49,887 bases of DNA from Methanobacteriota archaeon (GTDB taxonomy: Archaea > Thermoplasmatota > Poseidoniia > Poseidoniales > Thalassarchaeaceae): positions 1 through 49,887 of the forward strand of contig PBPH01000011.1 of the NCBI GenBank assembly GCA_002725475.1, in the 5' to 3' direction. Position 1 is the stretch's first letter; every line of letters begins with the position of its first letter. Positions 17,049 to 42,608 of the stretch are shown here, one piece after another. Below the pieces are notes generated by a model. The model searched no databases, was not told the DNA's origin, and was given only the letters and a program-made list of their open reading frames with translations. The position numbers were made by a program, and so were the translations under genes.

Positions 17049-17196
17049 AAACCCCCCTTTTTCCCTCGATATGCGATGATGTTCGATAACTAATATAGAT
17101 TAATCATAAACGCTGTACTGCGGGGCTATAGTGTTAGCATTTTTCGCACACGCGCACGAAAGGGGTAATAAGAGAACCCAAAGTCGGTCGGTCAGT

Positions 17197-23100: not shown

Positions 23101-23583
23101 GACGGTGGAGACTTCAGTCTCAAATTGAAGATAGAAGACCTCTATAACGAGAATGGTTCTATCCAGACAATTTACCTCAAGGTTGTTGAAGGAGACGGAC
23201 AAACTTGGACGCTATATCAGCAGATTGACATCAATCTACCACCAGTTGAGACAAATGTAGATCCGTGTGAAGCAGACCCCAATGCTGAGGGTTGTGATGG
23301 TAACTCCAACACAGATACTCAAAGTGGAGGCGGTATGACGAATGCAATTCTGTATGCAGGAATTGGTGCAGTTGTTCTTCTAGTGATTTTCATTATTTCA
23401 CTACTCGTAGTAAGGCGCTCTCGAAAGACTGGTGCTGAAGATGTTACTGGGTTTGCAGGTGTTGCAGGTATGGATCCAATGGAAGCATATGTGCAACAAT
23501 TGATTGCTCAAGGCTATCCTGAAGACACAGCAAGACAGTATGCCCAGCAATACGCAGGCCATTTCCAAGAACAGCAGCAATAG
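17197..23583 (+). CDS. Giant surface protein with FG-GAP/VCBS-like propeller, CARDB-like Ig domains, jelly-roll modules, a C-terminal TM and a cytoplasmic tail
   Basis: The track ORF is 17131..23583 (2150 aa, GTG start). A likelier start is the ATG at 17197, or the one at 17224 ahead of the signal peptide MNKSRVKALALVALMVLSTSLAV. Repeated Ca-binding FG-GAP-like loops are present (DFDCDGDDDIV, GDIDDDGQDDIV, ADVNGDGIDDIV, ADADGDGKIDTM, DVNQDGDVDLV). CARDB-like segments are also present (REVNVTVQNTGL, DVVVQNAGNT). The TM is AILYAGIGAVVLLVIFIISLLVV. Confidence 0.85.
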   Translation: MSSHTFELNMNKSRVKALALVALMVLSTSLAVMDVAASNSKQYPVTRNPLDLATGDFDCDGDDDIVTASEMGNFLSILWNDGGTYQDRSDIWVSNNNTRRAGFTSIADVGAVEVGDIDDDGQDDIVFYQGNIQVFGSTEVIRGNLTVLTNDDCAGSFSEDAVYTTGDILWEFQIADVNGDGIDDIVALELQDIASGTQRLLTYLGGSQRNNAATNHKITTLDNLANKVYSDLRLGNLGEAVVGGGLPGAGNDCDDLDAFIFFRTGYNAATGYADGDWDNVSIIEFECTLDTFAAWNDPNKQHQIKLNSEAGSFDIADADGDGKIDTMAITDFTSVVVQTCAAAPCPAQNNWQQVAVSPTIGDFMPATVSLEDVNQDGDVDLVVPTYSTITSLQGASGNTVTSYSTNNLDELNTVQIILSNGAGGFYSPQSMPVGRRPTMVLVGQFAGGPNSALDLAIGNRDYTFQYSNGALHIDSKGCAFDPLNPQLNGFGCGNLDAISVVQLDNEDLGISAMSVSPASFNPDTGSMTIGEGTREVNVTVQNTGLDMISGTVDVDVSVKEITGGTDTIVYSMDYDSAPTINCGNGCTWSSADYDGEQLFWHEELAANHSATPDGWEADVNPTDYMWAGTWYPNATSNNQMETGYLSNQDEALILRNIDLSGADAASLELDLFCTSGYSPVHYVNAQGGIVGMVIYDDSCNIDVYTDDDGWVPVIYRGGYDSVRLNEYYYNGGSVEYTSQIYHYSGINYSWIDLQDNNSLDLTPWAGETIDIRFRFRTGYEGSVGLDNESRNTQFDGMAIDNLTITKTITQFGQIQPVSQNLNLNNFAPGDEQSIILNAYFTNDTEYMIEATLSSPTGFVNEDASNDDIRWKMNVLNLYDPAVREITSFEPGALYASGDYPIDVVVQNAGNTVMDFDVQATVYTAQPNPLFSNPCKNVEEFEPSSCAYMFGDDSDGIGGIIDDTDPAIQNAIVPGNRPIFGSNAYWFGHPDTGYGDDWNESMTLQSIDLRNMAGDFAYLTFDYFAESDYLSDSSGNIVGVNDMANLEISWRKGSQTYQGVVYGSWNDYNENGIQGNQSCEDIDGDDYFDEVEFMGDHTDEGNYVIWFDSEGLLKSVTLDLTHIVLQNRTGASNQWRTECTSMSGAEVDLTFRFLSNGDGINGQSGFAGFAMDNITVQEYTFTPDQSYTNSVSDIDALEERNVTIGTHNFQQGIYRIDVMSVFDNVTAGNNWTNVKEVALGNNLSRVIFEVASVDVTLYRPDVLDCVEDVTYDCVYPRDQALNHEFTIPLKNGVLEGQYNIYLDVIDSSGATVSSTASTNSPLTLTPHESTDATFQPFSGWLDGETYELRFYSELIDGTQSGNQQNFTITFADSIDVAILSNPTDQNRLESVKQDMESMGMTYTQFRQSDWDNYLTSGWLDHYDKVLLPWQTIANVQASGYYDTLSVTATETILQNYMLAGGTVEIHLGPFAEGLDDKLLFNMVILNRDTAGNQIEHSDLNIADPYHPLLANVSSTAWLGMNNGNYVANAGFSTDNSGANQLPTQCGGRINTQQGTFHSLLNHDDDSSLHMLVTCGFGSGGLIVTTIDVENPSVSEPFGSTSSPLRSNLLAYRVTPYPTELGIAGNGWDLTVNGAPPSEADSSGDYPMLYLKSNSVVNLGFTSNIPGLDADWEIRGATDWDRNQFPPNVDFAHRGDDSHNVTFCLIDTSPSGTGCIQDASWDVTLYLHDAEGHTRITHLTLTTNDIIADESDPIANVTVEEHALYPDSLADHGTKESQGINWSVFLVKLSSSGDAKVKFDACESYDPDAMNGEKGITTYTWTVFQDYPWNNPSNDYDGHTFERTESMGCDWTYTFRNQTADPSGFAENPIRVELEVQDRAGRDSDTFKLYFVVVPEDWGDDAPVWEIQTPLDGSTQTGEYVWVNGSVISGSEDGDVSIEAALDSSILNETIDEKVKQLHDGKFADVRNLGDGGDFSLKLKIEDLYNENGSIQTIYLKVVEGDGQTWTLYQQIDINLPPVETNVDPCEADPNAEGCDGNSNTDTQSGGGMTNAILYAGIGAVVLLVIFIISLLVVRRSRKTGAEDVTGFAGVAGMDPMEAYVQQLIAQGYPEDTARQYAQQYAGHFQEQQQ

Positions 23584-28057: not shown

Positions 28058-30070
28058 TCAATCTTGTCGGCGTCTGACCAATCCGGCACCAATCAACGCT
28101 ATTATTGCAAATCCAATTCCTGGCGCAGGAAGTCCCCCCTCATCAGAGGATGAAACGGTATCTTCAACAATATCTTCCACTACCTCTTCGACCAATTCTA
28201 CATCTTCACTAATCGACGTACATTCGCCAGAAGCATCACAAGCATCTATTCCGATAGTATGGATTCCTTCAGTTAGTAAATCAAATGGAATTTCATCAGT
28301 CTGCCATTGATTTCCAGTCACACTAACTTGTCCTTGCTGAACTCCATCAATTTTCAGTGTGAAGGTGACCGCCTCTCCATCAGGATCTGAAAAATAACCT
28401 CTTAGAATGTAGTTGGCATCAACCCACTCGTAGCCAGAAATTTCGATAGTCGGTGGGACACTTTGCTTGGATAGACCCAAATCATACATGTAGTCAAATT
28501 GTGCCATTCCGGCAGCTGTGGCTTGAACATGTACATTTACAGCACCCGGTGAAAGTGTACCAGCACTTGCCGTAATTACCGAATCAGAACCATCAAGGGT
28601 GAAAGAAACGGGTACTTCAACCCCATTTTGCATCAATGTCAATGTTACTGACATTGTCTCGCTGTAAGTTGGGCTGAAACTGAATGAAAAATCGTCTAAT
28701 GTAGTTGTATTAGAGGGTGTAATGCTAAAAATTGGTGCGACATCAAAAGTTCTAGGTCCGCTAGTTTGTTGGCTACTGTCGGTCGCTTCACAAGTTACAG
28801 TGGTACTTTCTCCTGCTGAAGGTGAAATAACGGTCCAATGATTTGCTTCAGCTTCTTCAAGACTCCAACCTTCCGCTCCACTACAATCAACGTTGAGCAT
28901 TCCAGCACCCAAATCATCATCGAACCAACAGTTGATATCAGCTAAATCTACGATATATTCGCTCTCACCAAGGCCTGCAACAGGCAATCTGTAATTATCA
29001 GCAGGGGAACAGGTATTCCAAGTAGGGGGATTGTCAATCGCTGGTGGCATTGTTGTGAAATCTAAGAAATATTCTCGTGATGCAGGCCAATCCTGATTAT
29101 CATAAGTAAATCTTCTAGAAAATTCAGTGCCATCAGTTACAGCAATCATGGAATAATCCAAATCATCATCGATTTGATAGGACTGGCATTCATCTCTAGA
29201 CTCATATGTTTGCCCATAATCATCCGCCTCTTCATCCTCTTCAGTATATGTAGTGCTACAGTCATGTTCTTCATATGTATTGGCAATTCGTAGTTGATTC
29301 TCTTGGGGTGGGAATGTGTAAGTAAATTGGGCATTGGTCAAATTTCTTCCAACCATTGCGAGGGTGAAATTTGTAGAATCTATTGGCTCATCAAACCCAA
29401 CTGATGCATTAAGATAGATGATTGTATCACAACTATGTGGTCCACAAGCCCCTTGGTTTGCAGGATAGACAGGTACTTCTTCACAAGTGATTGTCCCTGT
29501 TGGCCCACCGAACTGATCTTGGCACCCCCTTCTTTCAGGATGTCCTTCGGGAATCAGGTTGGTTTCTTCCAATGTCATCCCTTCTTTAATCCAAGTTGCA
29601 TTATTCCAGTTCACTCCAGGGCCACCTCTATGAGCGGGCCCTCCCCTGAAACCGATACGAGTGTAGGTCTGAACTACGCAATCTATTCCAATTGCTTCAA
29701 CACCATCTTTTTCATCAGTTGATAACCAGTTGTTGTCCCCTCCTGGGAGACCCTCGAAAAGGCCATCAAGACTTTCTCTGAGGTCGCCAGCATAGGTTCC
29801 ATTCACCATTGCCATTGCTCTAACAGAAGCACCATCCCAATTTTGATTGATTACCACATTAAAATCAGCATAGTTGTAGTAAAACATATCCTCAAATGAA
29901 TATCCAGTACAATCTGCTTCAACTTGTCTTCCAGTAGCCGAGTTCAGAGTATCAATTTCATTAGTTTCTTCTTCAATCATAGTTGGTTCTGTAACATGCA
30001 GTAGAGATGAAAAAATCATCAATGCTACCAATATCAATGCGAAGTAGACCCGTCCATTTCTTGTCGCCAT
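28058..30070 (-). CDS. Secreted surface protein with a PGF-CTERM-like archaeal anchor
   Basis: 670 aa. The signal peptide is RVYFALILVALMIFSSLL, followed by a Cys-containing acidic ectodomain and C-terminal Ig-like modules. The terminal sequence GGLPAPGIGFAIIALIGAGLVRRRQD resembles an archaeosortase PGF-CTERM sorting signal. Confidence 0.75.
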   Translation of the reverse strand: MATRNGRVYFALILVALMIFSSLLHVTEPTMIEEETNEIDTLNSATGRQVEADCTGYSFEDMFYYNYADFNVVINQNWDGASVRAMAMVNGTYAGDLRESLDGLFEGLPGGDNNWLSTDEKDGVEAIGIDCVVQTYTRIGFRGGPAHRGGPGVNWNNATWIKEGMTLEETNLIPEGHPERRGCQDQFGGPTGTITCEEVPVYPANQGACGPHSCDTIIYLNASVGFDEPIDSTNFTLAMVGRNLTNAQFTYTFPPQENQLRIANTYEEHDCSTTYTEEDEEADDYGQTYESRDECQSYQIDDDLDYSMIAVTDGTEFSRRFTYDNQDWPASREYFLDFTTMPPAIDNPPTWNTCSPADNYRLPVAGLGESEYIVDLADINCWFDDDLGAGMLNVDCSGAEGWSLEEAEANHWTVISPSAGESTTVTCEATDSSQQTSGPRTFDVAPIFSITPSNTTTLDDFSFSFSPTYSETMSVTLTLMQNGVEVPVSFTLDGSDSVITASAGTLSPGAVNVHVQATAAGMAQFDYMYDLGLSKQSVPPTIEISGYEWVDANYILRGYFSDPDGEAVTFTLKIDGVQQGQVSVTGNQWQTDEIPFDLLTEGIHTIGIDACDASGECTSISEDVELVEEVVEDIVEDTVSSSDEGGLPAPGIGFAIIALIGAGLVRRRQD

Positions 30071-30149
30071 TACGTTGCCGAGGTCGCGTTTAGTGAAAGA
30101 GTGTTTTCCTTCCTGACACTTAGTGTATATCTGAACACCATTGTTCGAT

Positions 30150-31001
30150 TTATGGCCGTAGTGACCTGAATCTGCGTAAAAATAGCATTCCAGGTATGAT
30201 TGACCAGAGAATTGCTGATGCCCAAATGTAATTCTGGGAGATTATTGGCCTTGCATCCGGTTTGAGGTTTCCTTCAAGCAATAATTGGTAGACTCCGTTA
30301 GGGGATAATAGGTCAATAATTTCGCTAAACCGGTTGTATTGATTAGATTCTAGATTGGTAACATCCACTCCCATAAAAGTAGCTAGAATCGCAGTTAATA
30401 GTAACCAAACAAAAGTGAATAGCATCCAGATACCCACACCCAATGTGACGGAAGACCCCAAATCTTTTGCAATACTTGAAGCAAGTAATTGAATGCAAGC
30501 GTACCAGAAAATAATCAATCCAGTTGGAATTATGAAGTATAACCAGTCGTAAAGAGTCGGTAATTCTCCCATTTGTTCATTAATTAAAATCGTTCCAATT
30601 GCACAGAAAATAGTGGTTGGAATGAATACTGCCAACCATAATCCTTGAAGTTGAGAGCGGGCCAAGTCAAACCTATCTATTGGTTGTGATAGTTCAATAG
30701 CTAATTCGCCAGTCAATCTTTTCCTACTTATGCCATCAAATCCAAGAAGAACAACTCCCAGAGTTGACGAGAATAGGACAAATAGACTGACTAGAAACAA
30801 AATTTCGTATGGTGTATCGAATTGCAATTCTGAAGTCACGCTGGAAGATGAATCAGAAAGACCCCAACTACCTCCCAATATGAAAACAAACAAAAGACCA
30901 ATCAAAGCAATCATTCGCTGGCTTCGAAAATGCATTTTTGCTTCTAACCAGGAGAGGTGCCAAACCTTCTTTTCTCGAGACACCCTACTCATCTTCTTCA
31001 A
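30150..31001 (-). CDS. ABC-2 type transporter permease
   Basis: 283 aa with six predicted TM helices. The N-terminal WLEAKMHFRSQRMIALIGLLF is typical of ABC-2/NosY-like permeases. It overlaps the upstream ATPase gene by 17 nt. Confidence 0.75.
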   Translation of the reverse strand: MKKMSRVSREKKVWHLSWLEAKMHFRSQRMIALIGLLFVFILGGSWGLSDSSSSVTSELQFDTPYEILFLVSLFVLFSSTLGVVLLGFDGISRKRLTGELAIELSQPIDRFDLARSQLQGLWLAVFIPTTIFCAIGTILINEQMGELPTLYDWLYFIIPTGLIIFWYACIQLLASSIAKDLGSSVTLGVGIWMLFTFVWLLLTAILATFMGVDVTNLESNQYNRFSEIIDLLSPNGVYQLLLEGNLKPDARPIISQNYIWASAILWSIIPGMLFLRRFRSLRP

Positions 31002-32082
31002 CCCCTAATTTGCGTAATGGAATCATTGAATCATCCCCCACTTCAAGGCCTACAGTCTCAACGGATTCTCCAGTTGCTGCTGCTAACATTTCTTCAAGGG
31101 TCGGAAGAACAGTTTGCAATAGACAGATCTCTCCGCCAGATTCTTCAATAGATTGTAAGATATCATGTCTTTCGTTGCTACTCCACCCTCCTTTTTTGTG
31201 CAAGGTGAATCTCCATTCTTCTCCAGCCCATTCGTCACACTTCTGAATTGAAATACCCCTCCCGAAAGAGTTGTCTGACGGTGGGCACCAACCATTACCT
31301 GCAATAATCAGATAAGGATCGCAACCAAGCATTTTTTCGACTTCCGAAAGACTACCAGAAGCGACCATTTGGCCACGATGAAGAATTGCCAAGGAATCCA
31401 CGAATAATTCCATCTCGTGCAAATTATGGCTGCTAACAATGATTGCAACTCCTTTATCAGCAAGCTCGCGAAGAAGATGGCGGAAAGCGGCTTGGGCAAC
31501 GGGGTCGAGTCCATTTAGGGGTTCGTCCAATAACAAAATGTCAGGTTTTCCAAGAAGGGCACAAGCCAGGGTTAATCTTTGCCTCATCCCTTGGCTCATG
31601 TTGTCTAATGGGGTATCCATGCGATTACTCATGCCGACTGTTTTCAACATTTTTTCACTATCACCACCTTCTCCTCGAATGGTAATTAGCCGATTCAAAA
31701 CTTCTCTTGGAGTGTTTGTTCCTGACCAATTAACTCTCTCGGGCATTAATCCAATGTGACGCTGGGAGTTTGACCAACCGAGCATCTCACGATCTTGCCC
31801 AAAGATTTGAACATCGCCTTTCTGTTGTTCATTTAATCCAGCAATTGTGTGCAATAAGGTTGTTTTTCCCGAGCCATTAGGTCCAATCAATCCAAGGATT
31901 GTTCCCCTATTAACTTCTAAATCGACATTGTGAATTCCAGCACCCAATCTCTTTTTCCATGGTTTATGCCATTTCGTGAGCCTATGCCGGTATGTCACCC
32001 CTGATAGTGATAACAGTGGCGCCCCCTCTCCCATACCTCCTGGATTATACATCATGTTCTCAAACGTGCCGCCCCAAGTCAC
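30985..32082 (-). CDS. ABC transporter ATP-binding protein (ABC-2 subfamily) with a C-terminal accessory domain
   Basis: Walker A GPNGSGKTT, signature MSQGMRQRL and Walker B ILLLDEPLNGLD, plus a C-terminal extension of about 120 aa. Confidence 0.9.
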   Translation of the reverse strand: MTWGGTFENMMYNPGGMGEGAPLLSLSGVTYRHRLTKWHKPWKKRLGAGIHNVDLEVNRGTILGLIGPNGSGKTTLLHTIAGLNEQQKGDVQIFGQDREMLGWSNSQRHIGLMPERVNWSGTNTPREVLNRLITIRGEGGDSEKMLKTVGMSNRMDTPLDNMSQGMRQRLTLACALLGKPDILLLDEPLNGLDPVAQAAFRHLLRELADKGVAIIVSSHNLHEMELFVDSLAILHRGQMVASGSLSEVEKMLGCDPYLIIAGNGWCPPSDNSFGRGISIQKCDEWAGEEWRFTLHKKGGWSSNERHDILQSIEESGGEICLLQTVLPTLEEMLAAATGESVETVGLEVGDDSMIPLRKLGVEEDE

Positions 32083-32122
32083 TGTAGTCGGTGCTTTAAC
32101 CTGTTAGTTCGGTTTCGGCGAC

Positions 32123-32977
32123 TTGAAGCCAATGACGTTACTCTTCACTTTCATGACTTGGTTGGCCCCGTTAGGGCTACTAATTGTGTGGCAGTGGAGT
32201 TTGTGGAGACAACAAAAACCAGAAGTTCAGTTTTCGGATTGGTTACGCGCAGATCCATATATTTGCGGACTAGTGATCGCTCAAGGGTTGATTATTAGCA
32301 TTCCATTGGGTATTTGGCTCATCATGTGCGTATTCATTTTTTCAATGCTGATTTCATTAATGATTAGCGAACAACAGAGGACAGAATGGGGTCAAAGAAA
32401 AACGACAAGAGCAGTCGCACTATTTTTGCTAATTTCAATCCATGTCATGTCAGGATTTTTACCTGTTTCAGAACCTAATAGTGATGAAATATGGGGGGCT
32501 CCAGTAATTGAAAATCCAGAAAATAATCAATTTTGGCCAGCATCTCAACAGGAGATTTGGCTTCTTCCTGATGGAACAATAATTATTGAAACCCATATGC
32601 AGACTCCTGGAATTATTAATCCCTGGTTTTCTACTACGGCATTGAACGAATATTCTCAAGCCAGTGATGCAAAAGAAATTCGCTTTGAAGAAGCTGCTTC
32701 ATTGATGGATGATTGGGTAGGCCCCAACTCATTCACACTTTCACCTATTCATGAAGGAGTTGTACATGATTATGATGGACAAAAGTTGCTCTATACTCAT
32801 GATGATGTTATGCTGGATTTACTTGGCTCACACCCCTCTGGGGAAATGATAACTGTATGGAAACCAACATGGGGGGGGGAGATGCATCTTTTGTCAGTAA
32901 TCAAAGTCGGTCCAGATCCTTTTGTAGGAAACCCAGGTGCTCAAAAATATGTGGTTGATTGGTTATCCAACGAATAA
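32123..32977 (+). CDS. Membrane protein, function unknown
   Basis: 284 aa with 3-4 N-terminal TM helices and then a soluble domain. The track start is TTG, with an in-frame ATG at 32132. It contains a G9 homopolymer at 32871-32879. Confidence 0.55.
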   Translation: MKPMTLLFTFMTWLAPLGLLIVWQWSLWRQQKPEVQFSDWLRADPYICGLVIAQGLIISIPLGIWLIMCVFIFSMLISLMISEQQRTEWGQRKTTRAVALFLLISIHVMSGFLPVSEPNSDEIWGAPVIENPENNQFWPASQQEIWLLPDGTIIIETHMQTPGIINPWFSTTALNEYSQASDAKEIRFEEAASLMDDWVGPNSFTLSPIHEGVVHDYDGQKLLYTHDDVMLDLLGSHPSGEMITVWKPTWGGEMHLLSVIKVGPDPFVGNPGAQKYVVDWLSNE

Positions 32978-33069
32978 TAATTAGATTTAGGAACCCCTAA
33001 ATTAGGGCAACCTAATCTTTATGTATGGGCTTCGTGTCAGATGCTTTAGGGCAACCTAAAAGTATAGTT

Positions 33070-34065
33070 ATGGTGATAAAATTGAGAAAAAAGATAACTA
33101 GTACGGTTTTGATGTTGTTGATGGTAACAACCTGCCTGTCAGGTTGTCTAGGCACAGATGATGAAGAAATGGTAATCAAGATTGCATTTTCAGTTCAGGA
33201 CGACTATGATAATCCGGAGATGAACCCTCAGACTTTGGCGGATTTTGTTTCAGCGGAAACAGGTTTAGAGGTTGAACTCTATGCTATTTCATCGGATGGA
33301 ATGGCACTTGAGGCACTCCGTTTTGGCCATGCAGATGTGGCGTTTTTGGATGGCGGGTCTGCTTGGCTCGGTTGGCAAAATTATGGGCTTGATGTGATTG
33401 CTGCGGATCAGAAATCCGATGGTTCTACTTACTATGTACCACAAGGGTGGGTGCTAAATAATTCTACAATTCAAACGCTAGACGATTTATCTGGTATGGA
33501 TTCGTGTCATACTGGCTGGTTAAAATCCGCAGGAATGCTAATGCCAATGGGTTACATGATTGGTGAAGGTATAGTTGAAGTCACTGGTGATGAGAATGAA
33601 ATAGACTCTCTTAGAAGTACAATTGAGAACCATTTTGGAATTGCAACAATTCCTTCTAGCGGCGAACTCTACTATGGTTATGATGGGGCATTCCGCTGTT
33701 TGACAGAAGGTCAAGGGGATGTTGCATTTGCCAAGGAATCATCATTTGAAGATCATTGTGAGGGAAATGATTGGTGCCTAGAACGTTCTGAATACCGTCA
33801 GCTTGAGCCAGCATTTGGCCAAGTCCCCAGCCATGCAATTATGGTAAATCCCAGTCACTCGGGAGACGCCAAGATCGCCGCAATTACTGCAGCGTTACTG
33901 GCTCTGAACGGTTTTGAAGGAAATACTATTCTTGAGAATGTTCTCAATACTCCTGGAATAACTGAAATAGGAAGTCAGGAACATCTAGGAACGTACTCCT
34001 CTGCATTGAACAATATTCCAGGACTTACTATGGAGTATGAACAAAAATATGAACAGAACGCTTGA
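33070..34065 (+). CDS. Transferrin-like (PhnD-superfamily) substrate-binding lipoprotein of an ABC importer; putative Fe(III)-binding
   Basis: The track ORF starts at 33025; the ATG at 33070 gives MVIKLRKKITSTVLMLLMVTTCLSGC (signal plus lipobox-like LSGC). Motifs FLDGGSA, TYYVPQGWV, SCHTGWLKSAGMLMPMGYM, YYGYDGAFRCLTEGQGDVAFAKESSFED and QVPSHAIMV mirror hallmark segments of the transferrin N-lobe. Confidence 0.8.
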   Translation: MVIKLRKKITSTVLMLLMVTTCLSGCLGTDDEEMVIKIAFSVQDDYDNPEMNPQTLADFVSAETGLEVELYAISSDGMALEALRFGHADVAFLDGGSAWLGWQNYGLDVIAADQKSDGSTYYVPQGWVLNNSTIQTLDDLSGMDSCHTGWLKSAGMLMPMGYMIGEGIVEVTGDENEIDSLRSTIENHFGIATIPSSGELYYGYDGAFRCLTEGQGDVAFAKESSFEDHCEGNDWCLERSEYRQLEPAFGQVPSHAIMVNPSHSGDAKIAAITAALLALNGFEGNTILENVLNTPGITEIGSQEHLGTYSSALNNIPGLTMEYEQKYEQNA

Positions 34066-34083
34066 AATTTTATTGGGAGTATT

Positions 34084-34791
34084 ATGTCTAATTCAGTTAT
34101 CAAATTGAGTGATGTGGATATAGGATTCCTAGGCGAATCGCCACTTATTTCAATTCCCAATTTTGAGGCATTTGCTGGAGAAGTTATTGGAATAATTGGT
34201 GTTTCGGGAATTGGAAAAACAACATTGTTGAGGACATTGGCTGGTTTGCAACAACCACTTAATGGACAAATTTCAATTCTAGGCAAGTCATCATTTTCAG
34301 AGTTAGTAAAGGGTTCAATTGGTTATATCCCTCAACGATTGGGTCTTGTTCATCACCAGACAGTTGGTTACAATGTGCTTATGGGGGCTCTCCCTCAAGC
34401 CACTTGGTGGCAGTCATTATTTTCTCTCCCTTCTGCAGAAATGCGCCTAAGAACCCGAGAAGCAGTAGATGCAGTAGGGCTGTCAGACAAGATATCAGAC
34501 CAAGTATCACAACTTTCGGGGGGCCAACAGCGAAGAGTTGCAGTGGCTAGATCTCTAATGCAGAAACCTTCTATTCTCCTAGCTGATGAATGTCTTGGGG
34601 AACTAGATTTGGCAACAAGCGAAATAGTTGCTGAACAGTTGCTCCATCTTGCTAAGGAGCATGGCTCTTGTGTTATTTTGGTTGATCATAGTCCAGCAAG
34701 AATGCGGGTTCTATGCGATCGATTGATAGAATTACATCAAGGTAAGATTCGCGAGATGGAGCCTGGTTCCATTTCTCTCCCATTATTGTAG
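34084..34791 (+). CDS. ABC transporter ATP-binding protein (PhnC-like)
   Basis: Walker A GVSGIGKTT, Q-loop IPQR, signature LSGGQQRRVAVARSL and Walker B ILLADECLGELD. Confidence 0.9.
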   Translation: MSNSVIKLSDVDIGFLGESPLISIPNFEAFAGEVIGIIGVSGIGKTTLLRTLAGLQQPLNGQISILGKSSFSELVKGSIGYIPQRLGLVHHQTVGYNVLMGALPQATWWQSLFSLPSAEMRLRTREAVDAVGLSDKISDQVSQLSGGQQRRVAVARSLMQKPSILLADECLGELDLATSEIVAEQLLHLAKEHGSCVILVDHSPARMRVLCDRLIELHQGKIREMEPGSISLPLL

Positions 34792-34799
34792 GTGTAGTT

Positions 34800-35690
34800 A
34801 TGCTTTCTTCCTTAATTCAAAATCTAAGAAAGAGGTCAAGATTGATTACTTTCATTGCTGTTTCTTTACTGGCTTACATAGTTTCTAGGCACCTTGATGT
34901 CACAGGCCCAAACCTATCAAGGGGATTCGATAATTTACTAGTGATAATGGCCGAATCCTTCCCTCCAGATTTCTCAGTATTGACTAATAGAGCATCATGG
35001 TCAAATCCTCCGTGTAATTTCGATTCAGATATTCTCTGTAGCCCAGCCGCAGTTGGATTACTGCAAACGCTAGAAATCGCTTTCCTAGCAACACTTTTTG
35101 GCACCATTATTTCTCTTCCTCTTTCATCAATGGCAGCTCACAATCTTAGTCCCCTATGGCTTTCTACCATTACTAGAAACCTGCTAGCAGGTTTGCGTGT
35201 TCTTCCATCATTAATTTGGGCACTATTATTCGTAATAATTGTTGGAATAGGTCCTTTAGCAGGAGTTCTAGCAATGACTCTCTACACAATTGGCTATCTT
35301 GGAAAACTACAGTACGAGGCCCTAGAGGGAATTAGGAAGCAACCACTAGAGGCTGCAAGAGCAATGGGTTTGTCTAGGGCAGTTGTGACAAGATATTTTG
35401 CCATACCAGAGGCTAGCAATTCTCTAATTAGTCAAATTCTATTCATGTTTGAATACAATGTGAGGCACGGTTCTGTTGTGGGTTTGGTTGGCGCTGGTGG
35501 AATTGGTTGGTACATGCAATACTACATTTCACCATTCAAATTATACGATAGAGTTCTAGCCTTAATCCTCGTTCTTTATGTTACTGTAACCATTATCGAT
35601 TGGCTGAGTTTGAAAATTAGACGTAGATTCATAGAATCAGAAGAGGTAAAAAAGCCCAGATGGCGAGACGTAATGTTGCCACAGAAATAG
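34800..35690 (+). CDS. ABC transporter permease (PhnE-like)
   Basis: LQTLEIAFLATLFGTIISLPLS and EAARAMGLSRAVVTRYFAIPEASNSLISQILFMFEYNVRHGSVVGLVGAGGIGW match the PhnE-type EAA loop and the conserved tail. Confidence 0.85.
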   Translation: MLSSLIQNLRKRSRLITFIAVSLLAYIVSRHLDVTGPNLSRGFDNLLVIMAESFPPDFSVLTNRASWSNPPCNFDSDILCSPAAVGLLQTLEIAFLATLFGTIISLPLSSMAAHNLSPLWLSTITRNLLAGLRVLPSLIWALLFVIIVGIGPLAGVLAMTLYTIGYLGKLQYEALEGIRKQPLEAARAMGLSRAVVTRYFAIPEASNSLISQILFMFEYNVRHGSVVGLVGAGGIGWYMQYYISPFKLYDRVLALILVLYVTVTIIDWLSLKIRRRFIESEEVKKPRWRDVMLPQK

Positions 35691-35692
35691 AT

Positions 35693-35956
35693 TTATTCTG
35701 CAGCAACTCGAATAGCTCCGTCCCTGTAATGAACGTAGATATTGTTTGGAATCTTGGCTGTTAGGGATGCAAGAGTTTCACGAATTTGGTCTTCACTCAC
35801 ATCGAATGCCTCTGCAGCTCTTTGACTTGACCAAGGAACGGATTCAAAGTCAGATTTCTTAATCCATTCATACAAACGACGTTCTAGAAGAGATAAGTCT
35901 TCAACTGCCATACCACTCGGATAAGGTCTTCCTCTATGGATATTGGTATTTATCAC
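35693..35956 (-). CDS. Small helix-turn-helix-like protein, function unknown
   Basis: 87 aa. LLERRLYEWIKK...SSQRAAEAFDVSEDQIRETLASL looks like a wHTH. The ORF overlaps the gpsA stop by 4 nt, which suggests co-translation. An alternative start lies at the internal Met (35911). Confidence 0.45.
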   Translation of the reverse strand: MINTNIHRGRPYPSGMAVEDLSLLERRLYEWIKKSDFESVPWSSQRAAEAFDVSEDQIRETLASLTAKIPNNIYVHYRDGAIRVAAE

Positions 35957-36960
35957 AAACTTTGCTCAACCATATTTCTTACACATTCTTCAGCAGTAAT
36001 TTCGCCATCAAGCAATTCGTTTAGGGCCTCAGTGAAAGGTACAGGGCACCCTACTTGAGCGGCCCTCTTACGAAACATCCTAGCAGCTCTAACTCCTTCT
36101 GCAACCATGTGCATCTCTGACAACCCCTCTTCGAGGCTTTTTCCTTGACCAAGTTTTTCCCCTAAAGTTCGATTACGACTACGTGGGCTAGTGCTTGTAA
36201 CGTATAAGTCTCCCAACCCTGCTGGTCCCAAGGAAGTATCTTCTCTTGCACCAAGCATAACCAAAAGGCGTCTTCCTTCAGCAAATCCAATAGGAACTAA
36301 AGCGGCTTTCAGATTATCTCCACCAATTCCAGCCCTTAACCCATCGACAATACCACAAGCAAGAGCGACAGTATTCTTGAAAGCGCCCCAAAGTTCTGCA
36401 CCGATGGGGTCATCTGCTGCTTTGAGAATCAATGTTTCAGTCGATAATCTGCTTGCAACCCTTTCGGCAACAGAGTGATCATGTGCCGCAACGAGGGCGT
36501 TGGTAAGTACTCCACGTGCAACTTCAGGAGCTATAGTTGGCCCGGTTAACACAACTACGGGGTTTGATAGGCCGGCTGCAGCTAATTTTTTCTCAATAGC
36601 ATCAGAAATTAATCCGCTCCCCTCCTCATCTTTGGGGGCTATACCCTTTGCAAGATCCACCAAGACATGTGAAGGTCGAAGGTATTGAGTAAGCTCATCA
36701 ACGACTGAGAGAATCACCCCAGATGGTATGGCTAAAATTATCAGTTCAGATGCATCACACACTTCTTCTAGATTCATCGATGCATCTACGCCCTCAAGAA
36801 TGACATCGGGGAGGTATTTTTTGTTGATATTCTCCAGCACCATTGATTCGTAGACTTCAGCCTCAACGGTCCACCCCATAACTGAATGCCCATCCTTGGC
36901 CCAAATATGGGCTAGAGATGTCCCCCAGTTCCCAAGTCCAAGTACCCCAATCTTAGTCAT
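35953..36960 (-). CDS. gpsA: NAD(P)H-dependent glycerol-3-phosphate dehydrogenase
   Basis: The Rossmann motif is KIGVLGLGNWGTSLAHIW. GPTIAPEVARG, KNTVALACGIVDGLRAGIGGDNLKAALV, GLGDLYVTSTSPRSRNRTLG and MVAEGVRAA are GpsA hallmarks. Confidence 0.9.
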   Translation of the reverse strand: MTKIGVLGLGNWGTSLAHIWAKDGHSVMGWTVEAEVYESMVLENINKKYLPDVILEGVDASMNLEEVCDASELIILAIPSGVILSVVDELTQYLRPSHVLVDLAKGIAPKDEEGSGLISDAIEKKLAAAGLSNPVVVLTGPTIAPEVARGVLTNALVAAHDHSVAERVASRLSTETLILKAADDPIGAELWGAFKNTVALACGIVDGLRAGIGGDNLKAALVPIGFAEGRRLLVMLGAREDTSLGPAGLGDLYVTSTSPRSRNRTLGEKLGQGKSLEEGLSEMHMVAEGVRAARMFRKRAAQVGCPVPFTEALNELLDGEITAEECVRNMVEQSL

Positions 36961-38990: not shown

Positions 38991-41900
38991 TCAATTATAT
39001 TGCGAACATGATTTACAATAATCAGCGCCATATGAAGGGATGTGATGAACTTCCATTGCTCCACAATGCTTGCAGGGCTTTCCAGTAGGCACCATTTCTC
39101 CTGTTTGGCCTCCAGTACTAGTATCGGTGGTCGATGGTGCGGCAGCAGAGGGCGTAGTTTTGGTACTAGAAAGTTGAGCTTCTGCAACTGCTAGAGAAGG
39201 AATCGCTGGCATCGCCGGCTCATTTTTTCCGCCCATCAAGAGTAATGCTGCGACGCCAATTAATAGCAGTATTACTACTGCAAAAATTGCCCCAACAAGC
39301 ATTGTACTAACCCCTTCGCTAGAAGCGGTTTCAGTCCCATCTCCACCATCATCGGAAGTGCTAGTATTGGTACCATCGTCATCATCTTCTGTGTCATCAC
39401 TACCACCTTCTCCTGCACCCGGGAAGTCTAGTGGGTAGTAAGGGTCAGTACCGTTTTCCATTTCTGCAACATCAGAGTAACCATCTCCATCATCATCATC
39501 ATCTAAATCATCGGCAATACCGTCATTATCAAAGTCAGGACAACCAACCAATTCGCCGCTAGATGTACCGAAGTTGTTTGGACAATCATCGCCATTTGTA
39601 CCAGTTTGATTATCACCGAATCCATCTCCATCAGAATCGTATTGCTGGCTAGGATCTTGCGGTAAGAAGTCAATCTTGTCGTTCACTCCATCTTCATCGT
39701 TATCTCTTTGACTTTCTCCACAACCATTGAGATCGACAGTTTCACCCATTTCGGTATCTGGGCACTGATCTTGTGAATCACTAACACCATCTTGGTCCGA
39801 ATCTCTTTGTTCGTCTGAACAACCGATGTTATCGACAGTTACGAGGTCAGTTGTATTGGGGCATTGGTCTTGTGCATCGTTAACTCCGTCCTCGTCAGAA
39901 TCTTTCTGACTGGGGCTACATCCATCGCTATCTACCAGATGTCCTTCATATCCGGGCGTATTGGGGCACAAATCCAATGCATTTGAGACACCATCATAGT
40001 CGTCGTCTCGTTGCTCATAAGCGCAACCCCATAAGTCAATATTTTCTGCACCATAAGGAGTATCTGGGCATTGGTCATCATCATTTTCTACAAAGTCGTG
40101 ATCAGCTTCCCATGCGAACCTCTTGAGTTCTCTTAATTCTGAAAGTTCTGAACTGGTGTGATACCAAACCTCTTCCCAACCATCATCACTAACCATTAGC
40201 TTAGGATAAAGTCCAGCTGTAGCATCATCAATGACAGTTAGAGTTTCCCAACCTGTTCTAGTTGGGGACGCAATTTGCAAAGCACCTTTGCCACTATCAT
40301 ACCACGTTGAATGAATTAGTCCAGCCGAATCTTCAACTACTGACATGTATGAAACAAGTGTGTCGCTTCTCTGGTCAAGAATATGGTAGTTGAAAGACGA
40401 ACCATCCCATTCAGCAACTTGGACAGTACATTCTTGAGGTGCATCGCAGGTTGTATCACTTGAACTATCTCGTCCGCGGAAGTAATTGATTAGTAAGCGC
40501 CCATCATCAGTTACGTCTGTATCTAATCGATAAAAACCAACGACTCCGCTGGTGGTAACATTGTGGATGTCCCAATTAGAACCGTTTTCAATTGCTAGAC
40601 GAATCATTACAGGATTACTACTGTAATAAGATACGTGGGCTACATCATTTACGTAGTCAACACTAGCGTAAGTTCCATTTGCCTGAATAGTTTCTTCAAT
40701 CCAACTGCTTCCAGATTCTCTAGCTACTTTCAATTCAGAATATGCTCCAGAATTATCAGTATAAGATACAATTCTGCTCCCCGTCGAATCAACTGCTACA
40801 TCCGTGTACCATCCAGTAGAGTCGTCATTTGCGATAACCTCAACTGACCAATCACTACCTGTTTTGGTAGCAATCTTTGCTGCAGTTTCAGTGACTCCAC
40901 CAATTTCGTTTACCGCAGTTTTTGCGTGGAATGCAACACTTTCGGTCCCATCAGATGCAATTGCTAAAGAGGCATATCTTCCAGTTTCTCCTCCTTGATC
41001 TAATATTTCTGATGCTCCCCAAGTACCATCAGAATTTTGTTTTCGATAAATTAGATTGCAATCATTAGTCATGTTACTAGGAGCCCTGTCACAAGAATTA
41101 TCATTGTTTGAGTATCCCCTGAAGTGTACAAGTCGAAGTAAGCCATCATCACCTTTTGCTACATCAACATATGCAAAATCATCGTCTCCACTACTAGTGA
41201 GAATTTGCTTTTCGTAATGACATCCAGTATCATCAATAACTCTACCAGCAGGCGTGTTCATGCACCTGTCTTGAGCATCTGCAATTCCATCACCGTCAGC
41301 ATCTGCTGCAGGGGTTGCAATAATCAAATCATCATCATCATTATCATAGTAAGAAAACACCTCGCCGCCATTTTGGTCTATTGCAATATCGGCGTATGAG
41401 CCAACACTTCCAATACTTGCAATTTTCTTTGATTCCCATGAAGTTGCTTGCTGTCTAAGCAATACTAAATCAGAGTTTGAGTAGTCATAGTAAGATATGT
41501 GTAAATCACCAACCGAATCACTTTCAATTCTTACATAATCACCAATATTGTTAGTCCCATTTGCTATCATACTGTGGGACCAACTATTCCCGTCCTTGAC
41601 TGCTAATCGGACACTATCCCAGCCAGATGTATTTTGATATGCTATGAATTCATTTCCATTTGAGTCTATTTCTAATTGCAGCCACCATGCAGGATAGTAT
41701 TGTCTTCCGGTTTCATTAATGTGAATATCATTAATTCCCCATCCACCACCATCGAATGCCGCATATCGTAATGAAAATGTGTACCATGCAGAAATTGTTG
41801 TTCCAGTCACAGGGTCGCTGATACTGTTAACAAGAGCACAAGTATAAGCTACCCTAGGTCTCCCATTATCTCCTATTTGGAGACTACTAAATTGTCCAAT

Positions 41901-42608
41901 ATCCGAATAATCATCGTAATCCCCAGATTCGCCAAGCCCGTTATCTATTGTCCCATAAGCCCATGATTGATCACTGCTATCCCAATTTGCAAATGATAGA
42001 TTATATTCGCCATTATGTTCAGTATAGAAAGAGAACCATTCAGAATCAGAATCATCAATTGCGAATCCTATCCTCCCTTCACCAGCGTATGGATTTCCAT
42101 CACCTGTATTTTCACCTGGAGCTACAGTGTTGGTGCTCCATGAATTCCCATCATATCGTGAAATTCTAAGCACCGCGTTGGTAATGTCAAAAGATGCAAT
42201 TCTCGGATTTCCATTAGAATCAATGTCAATCTCAGCATATTTCCCAATATCTCCGAAAGTGTAAACATCATCAACTTGCCAAGACCAACCATTCCAATGA
42301 GCAACTTTCAAATCGCGCCCTGCTGCAGAGTAGAAAGCAACCCAAACCGTCCCATCGTCAGCGATATCCGAGGAGGTCCATTGTCCAGTATCGCCATCGG
42401 TATCTACCGTTTCTTTCAGCCACGCTGTAGCGGCGCTAGAACGGGCCTCAGCAGGCCAATTTTCAGAATCTCTAGGCATTTCAACTTCAGTTTGTTCTAC
42501 TTCACTCATTTCTGTTGTGTTTGTAACAGCAATTGGGCTAAGTGAGGTCAAAATCAACACAAATAGCAGCATTATCGGGGCTGTAGTGGGCACACGGCTC
42601 ATGGACAT
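38991..42608 (-). CDS. Giant surface protein: beta-propeller-like repeats, thrombospondin type-3 Ca-binding repeats, a TM helix and a cytoplasmic zinc ribbon
   Basis: 1205 aa. A signal peptide is followed by at least 10 degenerate repeats of the form G-x-Y-x-(S/D)-(I/L)-x-(I/V)-D-S-x-G-x-x-x-(I/V)-(A/S)-Y (for example GKYAEIDIDSNGNPRIASF, GSYADIAIDQNGGEVFSYY, GWYTDVAVDSTGSRIVSYT). TSP3-like D-rich repeats follow (DDDQCPDTP, DSDEDGVNDAQDQCPNT, DSDQDGVSDSQDQCPDT). The TM is MLVGAIFAVVILLLIGVAALLLM and the terminal ribbon is CKHCG...CKSC. Confidence 0.85.
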   Translation of the reverse strand: MSMSRVPTTAPIMLLFVLILTSLSPIAVTNTTEMSEVEQTEVEMPRDSENWPAEARSSAATAWLKETVDTDGDTGQWTSSDIADDGTVWVAFYSAAGRDLKVAHWNGWSWQVDDVYTFGDIGKYAEIDIDSNGNPRIASFDITNAVLRISRYDGNSWSTNTVAPGENTGDGNPYAGEGRIGFAIDDSDSEWFSFYTEHNGEYNLSFANWDSSDQSWAYGTIDNGLGESGDYDDYSDIGQFSSLQIGDNGRPRVAYTCALVNSISDPVTGTTISAWYTFSLRYAAFDGGGWGINDIHINETGRQYYPAWWLQLEIDSNGNEFIAYQNTSGWDSVRLAVKDGNSWSHSMIANGTNNIGDYVRIESDSVGDLHISYYDYSNSDLVLLRQQATSWESKKIASIGSVGSYADIAIDQNGGEVFSYYDNDDDDLIIATPAADADGDGIADAQDRCMNTPAGRVIDDTGCHYEKQILTSSGDDDFAYVDVAKGDDGLLRLVHFRGYSNNDNSCDRAPSNMTNDCNLIYRKQNSDGTWGASEILDQGGETGRYASLAIASDGTESVAFHAKTAVNEIGGVTETAAKIATKTGSDWSVEVIANDDSTGWYTDVAVDSTGSRIVSYTDNSGAYSELKVARESGSSWIEETIQANGTYASVDYVNDVAHVSYYSSNPVMIRLAIENGSNWDIHNVTTSGVVGFYRLDTDVTDDGRLLINYFRGRDSSSDTTCDAPQECTVQVAEWDGSSFNYHILDQRSDTLVSYMSVVEDSAGLIHSTWYDSGKGALQIASPTRTGWETLTVIDDATAGLYPKLMVSDDGWEEVWYHTSSELSELRELKRFAWEADHDFVENDDDQCPDTPYGAENIDLWGCAYEQRDDDYDGVSNALDLCPNTPGYEGHLVDSDGCSPSQKDSDEDGVNDAQDQCPNTTDLVTVDNIGCSDEQRDSDQDGVSDSQDQCPDTEMGETVDLNGCGESQRDNDEDGVNDKIDFLPQDPSQQYDSDGDGFGDNQTGTNGDDCPNNFGTSSGELVGCPDFDNDGIADDLDDDDDGDGYSDVAEMENGTDPYYPLDFPGAGEGGSDDTEDDDDGTNTSTSDDGGDGTETASSEGVSTMLVGAIFAVVILLLIGVAALLLMGGKNEPAMPAIPSLAVAEAQLSSTKTTPSAAAPSTTDTSTGGQTGEMVPTGKPCKHCGAMEVHHIPSYGADYCKSCSQYN
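39440..40105 (-). repeat. Coding tandem array of thrombospondin type-3-like calcium-binding repeats (approximate bounds)
   Basis: A reiterated D-x-D-x-D-G-(V/I)-x-D-x-x-D-x-C-P-(D/N)-T unit appears at the protein level. Matching gat/gac-rich periodicity is visible in the DNA. Confidence 0.6.

Follow-up and report, generated by a model that had tools for sequence, protein, structure and literature searches.

We analysed a three-gene operon for a transferrin-like substrate-binding protein (SBP) and a PhnC/PhnE-type ATP-binding cassette (ABC) transporter, located in a 49,887-nt stretch (49.9 kb, hereafter the window) of contig PBPH01000011.1 from a Thalassarchaeaceae/Poseidoniales archaeon (GCA_002725475.1). 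Residue numbers of the binding protein follow the 346-aa open reading frame (ORF) that starts at ATG 33025. The operon and its promoter comprise the following features:

32987-33000, no strand assigned: operator O1, TTAGGAACCCCTAA, a DtxR/IdeR-type single-dimer iron box, exact match to TTAGGNNNNCCTAA
33002-33015, no strand assigned: operator O2, TTAGGGCAACCTAA, exact TTAGGNNNNCCTAA match, abutting the TATA-like element
33018-33025, + strand: AT-rich TATA-like element TTTATGTA, the putative archaeal promoter core, from its position after the operator
33046-33059, no strand assigned: operator O3, TTAGGGCAACCTAA, exact TTAGGNNNNCCTAA match, 10 nt before ATG 33070
33070-34065, + strand: transferrin-like substrate-binding lipoprotein, 331 aa from ATG 33070, from ORF, Pfam and lipobox
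34084-34791, + strand: ABC ATPase, closest to PhnC (ABC_tran 103.6 bits; TIGR02315 156 bits)
34800-35690, + strand: ABC permease of the PhnE family (TIGR01097 227.1 bits)

The three ORFs that a first-pass annotation had placed here (33025/33070-34065, 34084-34791 and 34800-35690, all on the + strand) are all present as placed, and the five SBP motifs and LSGC lipobox that it listed lie at exactly the residues given. The Sec-type signal of the SBP ends in this lipobox, whose Cys codon is 33145-33147 (Cys41). The real start of the SBP is ATG 33070 and not ATG 33025, since the latter overlaps the end of the TATA-like box TTTATGTA and lies upstream of O3. The description of the ATPase and permease as PhnC/PhnE-like also holds: the permease scores above the NCBIfam PhnE equivalog cutoff (TIGR01097, 227.1 against 216.7), and PhnC (TIGR02315) is the best NCBIfam match of the ATPase, at 156 bits under an equivalog cutoff of 266. 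With one gene for the permease, this component is presumably a homodimer.

A scan of species-representative genomes returned 390 loci with homologues, the best 80 of which were used for locus analyses. All 80 are Poseidoniales apart from one contig binned otherwise, with identities of 55-75% in Marine Group II (MGII) family MGIIb and ~50% in MGIIa. The ATPase gene lies downstream of the SBP gene in 79 of the 80 loci, and the order SBP, ATPase, permease is retained in every one of them whose contig reaches far enough. The contig binned otherwise, L079 (CAXRAI010000013.1), is labelled Salinimicrobium sp. (Bacteroidota), yet has the archaeal operon with an MGIIa-type operator and 50% identity to the query, and is probably a mis-binned Poseidoniales contig.

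The SBP scores 75.8 bits against Pfam Transferrin (PF00405; E 4.5e-21, in two stretches, cutoff 20.3 bits), slightly above its 67.7 bits against Phosphonate-bd (PF12974; cutoff 27 bits), which is how the comparison of these two hidden Markov models (HMMs) suggested at the outset turned out. Since canonical transferrins also pass PF12974, at 62-84 bits, a pass of this profile is not specific to PhnD. The SBP failed both NCBIfam PhnD models, the equivalog TIGR03431 with 39.1 against 261.1 and the subfamily model TIGR01098 with 50.7 against 112.05. When compared by phmmer with PDB sequences, its top match is melanotransferrin (6xr0, E 1.5e-37), and the best 60 chains are all of the transferrin family, mostly lacto-, ovo- and serotransferrins, with no PhnD-family chain among them. 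Homologues at E <=1e-3 number 533, and every top one bears both the Transferrin and the Phosphonate-bd domain. They are named in a mixed manner: 'PhnD/SsuA/transferrin family substrate-binding protein' at NCBI (Candidatus Thalassarchaeaceae, Poseidoniales), 'melanoma-associated antigen p97' in another source, and 'ABC-type phosphate/phosphonate transport system substrate-binding protein' at the Joint Genome Institute (JGI). The one-lobe, lipobox-bearing transferrin homologue beside an ABC translocator that the first-pass annotation had described is therefore recovered as a single lobe in a conserved SBP-ATPase-permease operon of Poseidoniales. It is not a bilobal, soluble, endocytosed glycoprotein, being single-lobe, lipobox-bearing and encoded in an ABC operon, and the bilobal relatives known from archaea are ABC-linked as well; to judge by profile score and ligand set the SBP is a member of the transferrin sequence family, a placement that does not extend to architecture or delivery route.

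Aligned with bovine lactoferrin (1blf), D109, Y137, Y219 and H270 of the SBP fall on D60, Y92, Y192 and H253, the Fe(III) ligands of lactoferrin, while T163 and K167 fall on T117 and R121, whose side chains anchor the carbonate there. The ligand columns proposed from the sequence (D109, Y136/Y137, Y219 and H270) are thereby recovered, with the first Tyr being Y137 and not Y136. Across 63 single-lobe homologues, D109, Y137, T163, K167, Y219, A169 and G170 are invariant, as are the lipobox G40-C41 and four Cys, and H270 is kept in at least 90%. C161 and C225, both invariant, align with the transferrin C118-C194 pair (the Cys of SCHTG and FKCL). Among the relatives retrieved, the combination D-Y-T-K-Y-H is found in 176 of 270 lobes, D-Y-T-R-Y-H in 13 and D-Y-T-G-Y-H in 21. 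The Lys in place of the transferrin Arg, which had been reported as a feature of this protein, is indeed present as K167 but is no peculiarity of it: Lys is the common state of the wider family and is also seen in ichthyosporean and Corallochytrium lobes.

The same columns were compared with solved PhnD-family proteins by bridging the alignment via Nitrosopumilus P0197, a PhnD-like archaeal relative. At the four Fe-ligand positions, PtxB (5o2j) and a phosphonate SBP (5jvb) both have G/Y/H/Y and E. coli PhnD (3p7i) has G/Y/H/D, against D/Y/Y/H here; these columns contact the phosph(on)ate in PhnD and PtxB. Explicit tracking of the ligand columns, which had been recommended, thus finds a set kept family-wide, three of the four being absent from solved PhnD/PtxB. 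On this alignment the first Tyr alone is common to both groups, with the Asp, second Tyr and His being transferrin-specific. Judged by equivalog model and binding residues, then, the SBP is not a PhnD, although its translocator is PhnCE-type.

If the site holds iron, one could also imagine that the anion is phosphate or phosphonate, as with phosphate in FbpA, or that the ligand is a small Fe-chelate. The pocket for the anion derives from one for phosph(on)ate, it has Lys for Arg, the translocator is PhnE-type, and the PhnD-like relatives in Nitrosopumilus and Heimdallarchaeota keep D/Y/Y/H together with a Ser/Thr-rich, PhnD-style anion loop. The loop of the SBP itself, SCHTGWLKSAG, is nearly identical to that of transferrin, in contrast to the Ser/Thr-rich loop of PhnD, and Lys also occurs in protist transferrins, so that we regard an iron importer of this kind as decidedly unlikely and carbonate as the favoured anion.

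An AlphaFold2 (AF2) model of the SBP, built with the family alignment, has a predicted local distance difference test score (pLDDT) of 88.2 and a predicted template modelling score (pTM) of 0.80. Foldseek searches of the PDB with this model match apo/open transferrin lobes at E ~1e-17 and 20-24% identity, and apo-PtxB about equally well (E ~5e-17, 16% identity). Foldseek was accordingly set aside as a means of telling transferrin from PhnD, since both appear at E ~1e-17 and the fold class alone is confirmed; the structure prediction proposed in the first-pass annotation matched the transferrin-lobe fold but did not separate it from that of PtxB.

These results bear directly on the possibility that the operon is a PhnCDE-type importer of phosphonate, phosphite or a related phosphorus oxyanion, the transferrin-like residues being coincidental or making non-iron contacts. 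A permease that passes the PhnE equivalog, an ATPase with PhnC as its best match, and an SBP with 67.7 bits to Phosphonate-bd and a PtxB-like fold are what such an importer would have, and phosphonate transport has been listed as a core trait of MGII (Tully 2019, PMC6336850). It would, however, have to accommodate the wide failure of both NCBIfam PhnD models, three altered phosph(on)ate-binding columns alongside four transferrin Fe ligands that are all present and conserved, and a promoter iron box that elsewhere marks iron-uptake genes. In addition, no C-P (carbon-phosphorus) lyase, phosphonatase, other phosphonate-catabolic, pst or pho genes were found within the 49.9-kb window. We consider a phosphorus importer very unlikely, and turn to the promoter as a separate line of evidence for iron uptake.

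The three exact copies of TTAGG-N4-CCTAA (TTAGGNNNNCCTAA) at 32987-33059 are the sole exact copies in the window. O3 lies ~20-30 nt downstream of the TATA-like box, where transcription is expected to start. Among 77 orthologous loci with upstream sequence, counting sites with at most one mismatch within 350 nt of the lipobox codon, at least one operator copy is found upstream in 74, and the O2-equivalent site is conserved. Two copies are usual, spaced by 44 nt in MGIIb and 34 nt in MGIIa, and the layout is constant: operator 1 abuts the AT-rich TATA-like box, which comes right after the first operator in both MGII families, operator 2 follows ~20-30 nt on, and the start codon 0-20 nt after that. 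Matches are concentrated upstream of the operon (131 in 26.7 kb, whereas 784 kb from other parts of these loci hold 2). Two 1-mismatch off-target sites in L053, within or beside unrelated neighbour genes, are probably due to chance. An operator pair with a start-to-start spacing of 15 nt, as seen for O1 and O2, also occurs in L192, L167 and L211. Across the orthologous loci the half-sites are fixed and the 4-nt spacer varies freely, a pattern that reads as the phylogenetic footprint of a dimeric DNA-binding protein.

This motif has a precedent in characterized regulators. Marcos-Torres et al. (2021) found that one IdeR dimer binds two CCTAA repeats and proposed the 14-bp TTAGGNNNNCCTAA as a redefined IdeR/DtxR consensus (PMC8464063). 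In the archaeon Haloferax volcanii, the DtxR-family protein TroR binds TTTAGGC-NNN-CCTAAAANAN; its sites are often tandem, ~30 bp apart, and precede start codons by ~100 nt. Under iron-replete conditions TroR represses genes for siderophores and iron ABC transporters (PMC10783522).

To see what the motif marks outside this operon, metagenomes were scanned for site pairs 0-19 nt apart, spacings that lie outside both of those typical of the transferrin-like operon. The scan yielded at least 120 stretches from many biomes, with 141 flanking ORFs of at least 100 aa. Among the 141 flanking ORFs listed, Pfam identified 13 FTR1 iron permeases and 16 DtxR-family repressors, and there were 8 Peripla_BP_2 proteins, ~8 Fe(III)-type SBPs, ~9-13 TonB-dependent receptors, 3 FeoB, 2 ZIP, 1 FecCD, 1 HtaA, 1 flavodoxin and 4 more transferrin-like SBPs. 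The Mn/Zn-specific families SBP_bac_9 and NRAMP were not among the top Pfam families of these ORFs. Given the iron-gene families around the tandem sites and the lack of SBP_bac_9 and NRAMP among the top families, the tandem motif is, by this association, a reliable marker of iron regulons.

A regulator that could act on these operators was found in the same lineage. Stretch L192 (G+C fraction 0.37) encodes a 219-aa protein with Fe_dep_repress, Fe_dep_repr_C and FeoA/SH3-like domains, divergent from an operon for a 703-aa bilobal transferrin-like lipoprotein, a PhnC-like ATPase and a PhnE-like permease, and the region between the regulator gene and this operon holds three exact operators. The L192 permease is clearly orthologous to that of the window. 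The regulator is a Poseidoniales protein, highly conserved and abundant; a protein 95% identical to it is named 'metal-dependent transcriptional regulator [Candidatus Poseidoniales archaeon]' at NCBI. On other Poseidoniales contigs the regulator gene is divergent from an FTR1 iron permease, and on further ones from a 783-aa protein followed by a Peripla_BP_2/FecCD/ABC importer, with a flavodoxin nearby; exact operators in the regulator contigs are confined to the divergent intergenic region. The bilobal homologue P0121 likewise lies in an operator-preceded cluster, alongside a Peripla_BP_2/FecCD/ABC importer.

Two further observations concern the surroundings of the regulator and the box. The Poseidoniales DtxR-family gene is always followed by a ~118-aa DsrE-like gene with overlapping stop and start (L211-L216, 6660-7016; L192:1886-2242). 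In a marine Euryarchaeota metagenome-assembled genome (L118:1471-2206; L201-L206, e.g. L201:9161-10459), a tandem iron box lies between the complex I operon (nuo; nuoA...) and an operon of a 76-aa Cys-rich ORF and flavodoxin. Flavodoxin classically stands in for ferredoxin when iron is low. It was also at the nuo promoter, in Saccharopolyspora, that a single-dimer IdeR site was first described (PMC8464063).

The regulator leaves room for a DtxR-regulated importer of another metal, such as Mn or some other hard tri- or tetravalent ion. The DtxR family includes Mn-responsive members, the JGI label of the Poseidoniales regulator is 'DtxR family Mn-dependent', and transferrin sites can accommodate other hard metal ions. 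The regulator, however, shows the DtxR/IdeR arrangement of three domains, with the SH3/FeoA-like one among them, it has FTR1, a FecCD-type importer and flavodoxin as divergent neighbours, and the motif-flanking genes listed are overwhelmingly iron-specific, with the NRAMP and SBP_bac_9 result as given above. Asp/Tyr/Tyr/His plus an anion is, moreover, the classical Fe(III) site. A metal other than iron therefore seems unlikely to us.

We conclude that the operon probably encodes a DtxR-repressed Fe(III) ABC importer, in which a lipid-anchored, single-lobe, transferrin-type SBP serves a PhnC/PhnE-type translocator. The iron-uptake reading of the first-pass annotation is thus supported, and it gains independent support from the promoter iron box and the Poseidoniales DtxR-family regulator. 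In the mechanism that we propose, the SBP is exported, lipid-anchored via its lipobox Cys and folded as a single transferrin-type lobe. Between its two domains it would capture Fe(III) by Asp109, Tyr137, Tyr219 and His270, together with a synergistic anion, most likely carbonate, held on Thr163 and Lys167 and on the N-terminal end of the helix that follows, at Ala169-Gly170. Once closed around its cargo, the SBP would dock on a PhnE-type permease dimer powered by a PhnC-type ATPase dimer, with transport presumably directed inwards. DtxR-family repressor dimers, encoded elsewhere in the genome, would occupy the three operators, which lie on both sides of the TATA-like element and over the expected start of transcription, and thereby turn transcription off when iron is plentiful.

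Several points weigh against this interpretation. A tblastn search with a DtxR probe found no DtxR homologue in either the window or the 80 reference loci; the same probe was positive in 17 of 120 metagenome loci and is hence valid. The Mn-responsive branch of the DtxR family and the 'Mn-dependent' label have to be counted here too, as do the pass of Phosphonate-bd and the near-equal match to PtxB. The SBP model appears to resemble an open conformation, its best matches being open/apo forms. Finally, we know of no characterized ferric importer with a PhnE/PhnC-type translocator.

The remainder of the window is housekeeping in character (aconitase, 2-oxoacid:ferredoxin oxidoreductase, S-adenosylhomocysteine hydrolase, gpsA, upp and cdd). 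Two features directly downstream of the operon are conserved beside it:

35693-35956, - strand: small ORF, probable start 35911, overlapping the gpsA stop and convergent on the permease gene
35953-36960, - strand: bacterial-type NAD(P)-dependent glycerol-3-phosphate dehydrogenase (GpsA), beside the operon in both MGII families

The small ORF encodes 87 aa with a conserved core of ~72 aa, lies beside the operon in 61 of the 80 loci and in both MGII families, and is predicted by AF2 (pLDDT 80) to form a winged helix-turn-helix (HTH), with no Pfam match. It was considered as a regulator of the operon but could not be assigned as one, the winged helix being generic, with weak ScpB/ArsR/MarR-like Foldseek matches and a weak FadR HTH match. 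Upstream, the block 28058-32977 (cf. L053:784-5723) is kept beside the operon in MGIIb, where it is rearranged, and is largely absent in MGIIa; it encodes an ABC-2 permease, an ABC ATPase extended at its C-terminus, a 670-aa protein that is secreted or anchored, and a 284-aa membrane protein without Pfam match. Of these, the ABC-2 exporter and the two proteins of 284 aa (membrane) and 670 aa (surface) were dismissed as parts of the system, their conservation being confined to MGIIb and looking like plain synteny. The window also contains two very large ORFs, one of 2150 aa (17131-23583, + strand) and one of 1205 aa (38991-42608, - strand), the latter with Asp-rich repeats and a C-terminal membrane anchor.

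When 1.84 billion representatives were searched with a profile, 1226 matched at E <=1e-3, 98 of them at <=1e-30, many being multi-lobed. Named relatives include bilobal Euryarchaeota proteins, a D-Y-T-G-Y-H group with Nitrosopumilus and Heimdallarchaeota members, and multi-lobe proteins of Chromosphaera, Creolimax, Amoebidium, Abeoforma, Corallochytrium and the green alga Bryopsis. The Transferrin and Phosphonate-bd scores of these proteins form a gradient (in bits, in that order), from Nitrosopumilus (none/151) over Heimdallarchaeota (36/95) and the present SBP (76/68) to Abeoforma (113/47) and canonical transferrins (440-640/62-84). We further calculated a neighbour-joining (NJ) distance tree of 63 lobes, rooted on the PhnD-like D-Y-T-G-Y-H group and built without true PhnD outgroups, in which two unlabelled bilobal proteins are counted as eukaryotic by tree position only. 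Eukaryotic lobes are split from archaeal ones with 84% bootstrap, and the PhnD-like group from the MGII-type and eukaryotic lobes together with 98%; monophyly of the archaeal MGII-type clade has a bootstrap of 1-8%. As a lead, this rough tree would make the MGII-type proteins the nearest prokaryotic relatives of all eukaryotic lobes. The suggestion that the SBP is an intermediate between PhnD and transferrin thus agrees with the graded Pfam scores and the rough tree, but is not backed by a rigorous rooted phylogeny. It is possible, though rather short of probable, that the Poseidoniales/Thermoplasmatota SBPs are what survives of the prokaryotic stem, or the sister group, of all eukaryotic transferrins, still acting as Fe(III)-carbonate receptors of a PhnCE-type importer and linking transferrins to PhnD-type binders. 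The PhnD-like D/Y/Y/H proteins of Nitrosopumilus and Heimdallarchaeota would in that case be earlier steps, and a substantial share of the genes counted as 'phnCDE phosphonate transporter' in marine archaea and ocean metagenomes would encode iron importers.

The PhnD-like group deserves a closer description. P0197 (Nitrosopumilus; L207:4001-5089), P0204 (Heimdallarchaeota) and P0139 (Poseidoniales) score up to 151 bits to Phosphonate-bd with little or no Transferrin score, yet have Asp/Tyr/Tyr/His at the Fe-ligand columns. Gly occupies the Lys/Arg column in these proteins, and the four Cys are mostly absent. The gene of P0197 heads an SBP-ATPase-permease operon that adjoins CbtA/CbtB and is preceded, at a distance of 29 nt, by a 1-mismatch iron box, and this thaumarchaeal 'phosphonate transporter' may need re-examination too.

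Whole-lobe tandem duplications, giving bilobal proteins of 700-710 aa, are seen in P0007, P0013, P0019, P0085, P0121, L192:3031-5142 and L208:5001-7133, and both lobes of P0121 and of L192 keep D-Y-T-K-Y-H. The two P0121 lobes are each other's closest relatives in the NJ tree, which implies an archaeal duplication independent of that of animal bilobal transferrins. In other bilobal archaeal proteins (P0123, P0124, P0128, P0132 and P0138) the ligands are degenerate, mostly in lobe 2. In P0094, P0107, P0119 and the second lobe of L192, the strand with the His ligand is followed by 30-90 inserted residues rich in Cys (e.g. MWVEDYPMMGTNYTGCY...QNTCGGEIL). The single-lobe proteins P0157, P0183, P0257, P0216 and P0245 have the four family Cys and non-iron ligand columns (SSATPR, HSTTNR, DSSHSK, ...), and could possibly be paralogues with other ligands.

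In the surface ocean, a setting where growth is often limited by iron, MGII archaea count among the most abundant heterotrophs, and to our knowledge nothing is established about how they acquire this metal. Our literature search found no paper linking transferrin or DtxR with Poseidoniales and none relevant on transferrin in archaea or Nitrosopumilus, and in two major MGII papers there is no mention of either phosphonate or iron. If the proposed function is correct, the MGII core trait of 'transport of phosphonates' would really be high-affinity Fe(III) uptake, and phosphorus- and iron-cycle interpretations of marine omics data would change. The operator would provide a first handle on the iron regulon of these uncultured archaea, comprising the transferrin-like ABC operons, FTR1, the FecCD-type importer, flavodoxin and dtxR itself, and could serve as a readout of iron stress in situ. 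The SBP would also offer an expressible prokaryotic protein for testing the proposed origin of transferrins from phosphonate-binding periplasmic proteins, and the archaeal lobe duplications would independently parallel the origin of bilobal transferrins.

Compared with known systems, the operon shares with PhnCDE importers the order of SBP, ATPase and one permease, the PhnE equivalog and the PhnC-closest ATPase, and the SBP shares with PhnD, PtxB and HtxB the fold, the first Tyr and the anion-binding helix N-terminus. It differs in having Asp, Tyr and His where PhnD/PtxB have Gly, His and Tyr/Asp, in failing the PhnD equivalog and subfamily models, and in that the operon, within the 49.9-kb window, has an iron box instead of phosphorus-related context or regulation.

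With DtxR/IdeR/TroR regulons the promoter has in common the identical 14-bp TTAGGNNNNCCTAA half-site geometry (PMC8464063), tandem sites tens of bp apart and close to the start codon of iron-uptake genes, as for TroR (PMC10783522), and a three-domain DtxR-family regulator in the lineage that is itself preceded by operators. Unlike in DtxR/IdeR regulons, the classical 19-bp double-dimer box is not used and an archaeal TATA-like element lies between the sites; the regulator is, furthermore, unlinked to the operon in most genomes, and its binding to the operators is predicted here.

Eukaryotic transferrins (PF00405) resemble the SBP in sequence (E 1e-37 to melanotransferrin), in the class-II two-domain lobe fold, and in the four Fe ligands, the anion-site Thr, basic residue and helix N-terminus, and the C118-C194-equivalent Cys pair. 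They differ from it in having two lobes to its one, in being secreted where it is lipid-anchored on an archaeal membrane, in Arg for its Lys, and in delivery by receptor and endocytosis where the SBP would hand its cargo to an ABC translocator under DtxR-type operator control; the score to the Transferrin HMM is ~76 bits for the SBP and 220-320 per canonical lobe. The diatom phytotransferrin ISIP2a (McQuaid et al. 2018, Nature 555:534) is described in a review (PMC7676907) as an Fe(III) binder of marine plankton that is anchored in the membrane, has a single domain and depends on carbonate. On that account, the SBP would share all of these properties, with Fe(III)-carbonate binding predicted for it, and would differ in being wired to an ABC importer where ISIP2a uses endocytosis in eukaryotes. 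Among Pfam profiles, with no direct alignment to ISIP2a, no Fea1/ISIP2a-type match to the SBP was found at E up to 1.

Finally, the mechanism proposed here would be that of FbpABC, FutABC and SfuABC, with unchelated Fe(III), Tyr ligands, a synergistic anion, an ABC translocator and an iron-responsive repressor, realized with another ligand set and with a PhnE-type permease in place of their FbpB-type one. No Pfam match of the SBP to SBP_bac_1, 6, 8 or 11 was found at E up to 1. By analogy, the operon most likely works like FbpABC and FutABC, with an SBP that is unrelated to FbpA and FutA in sequence family.

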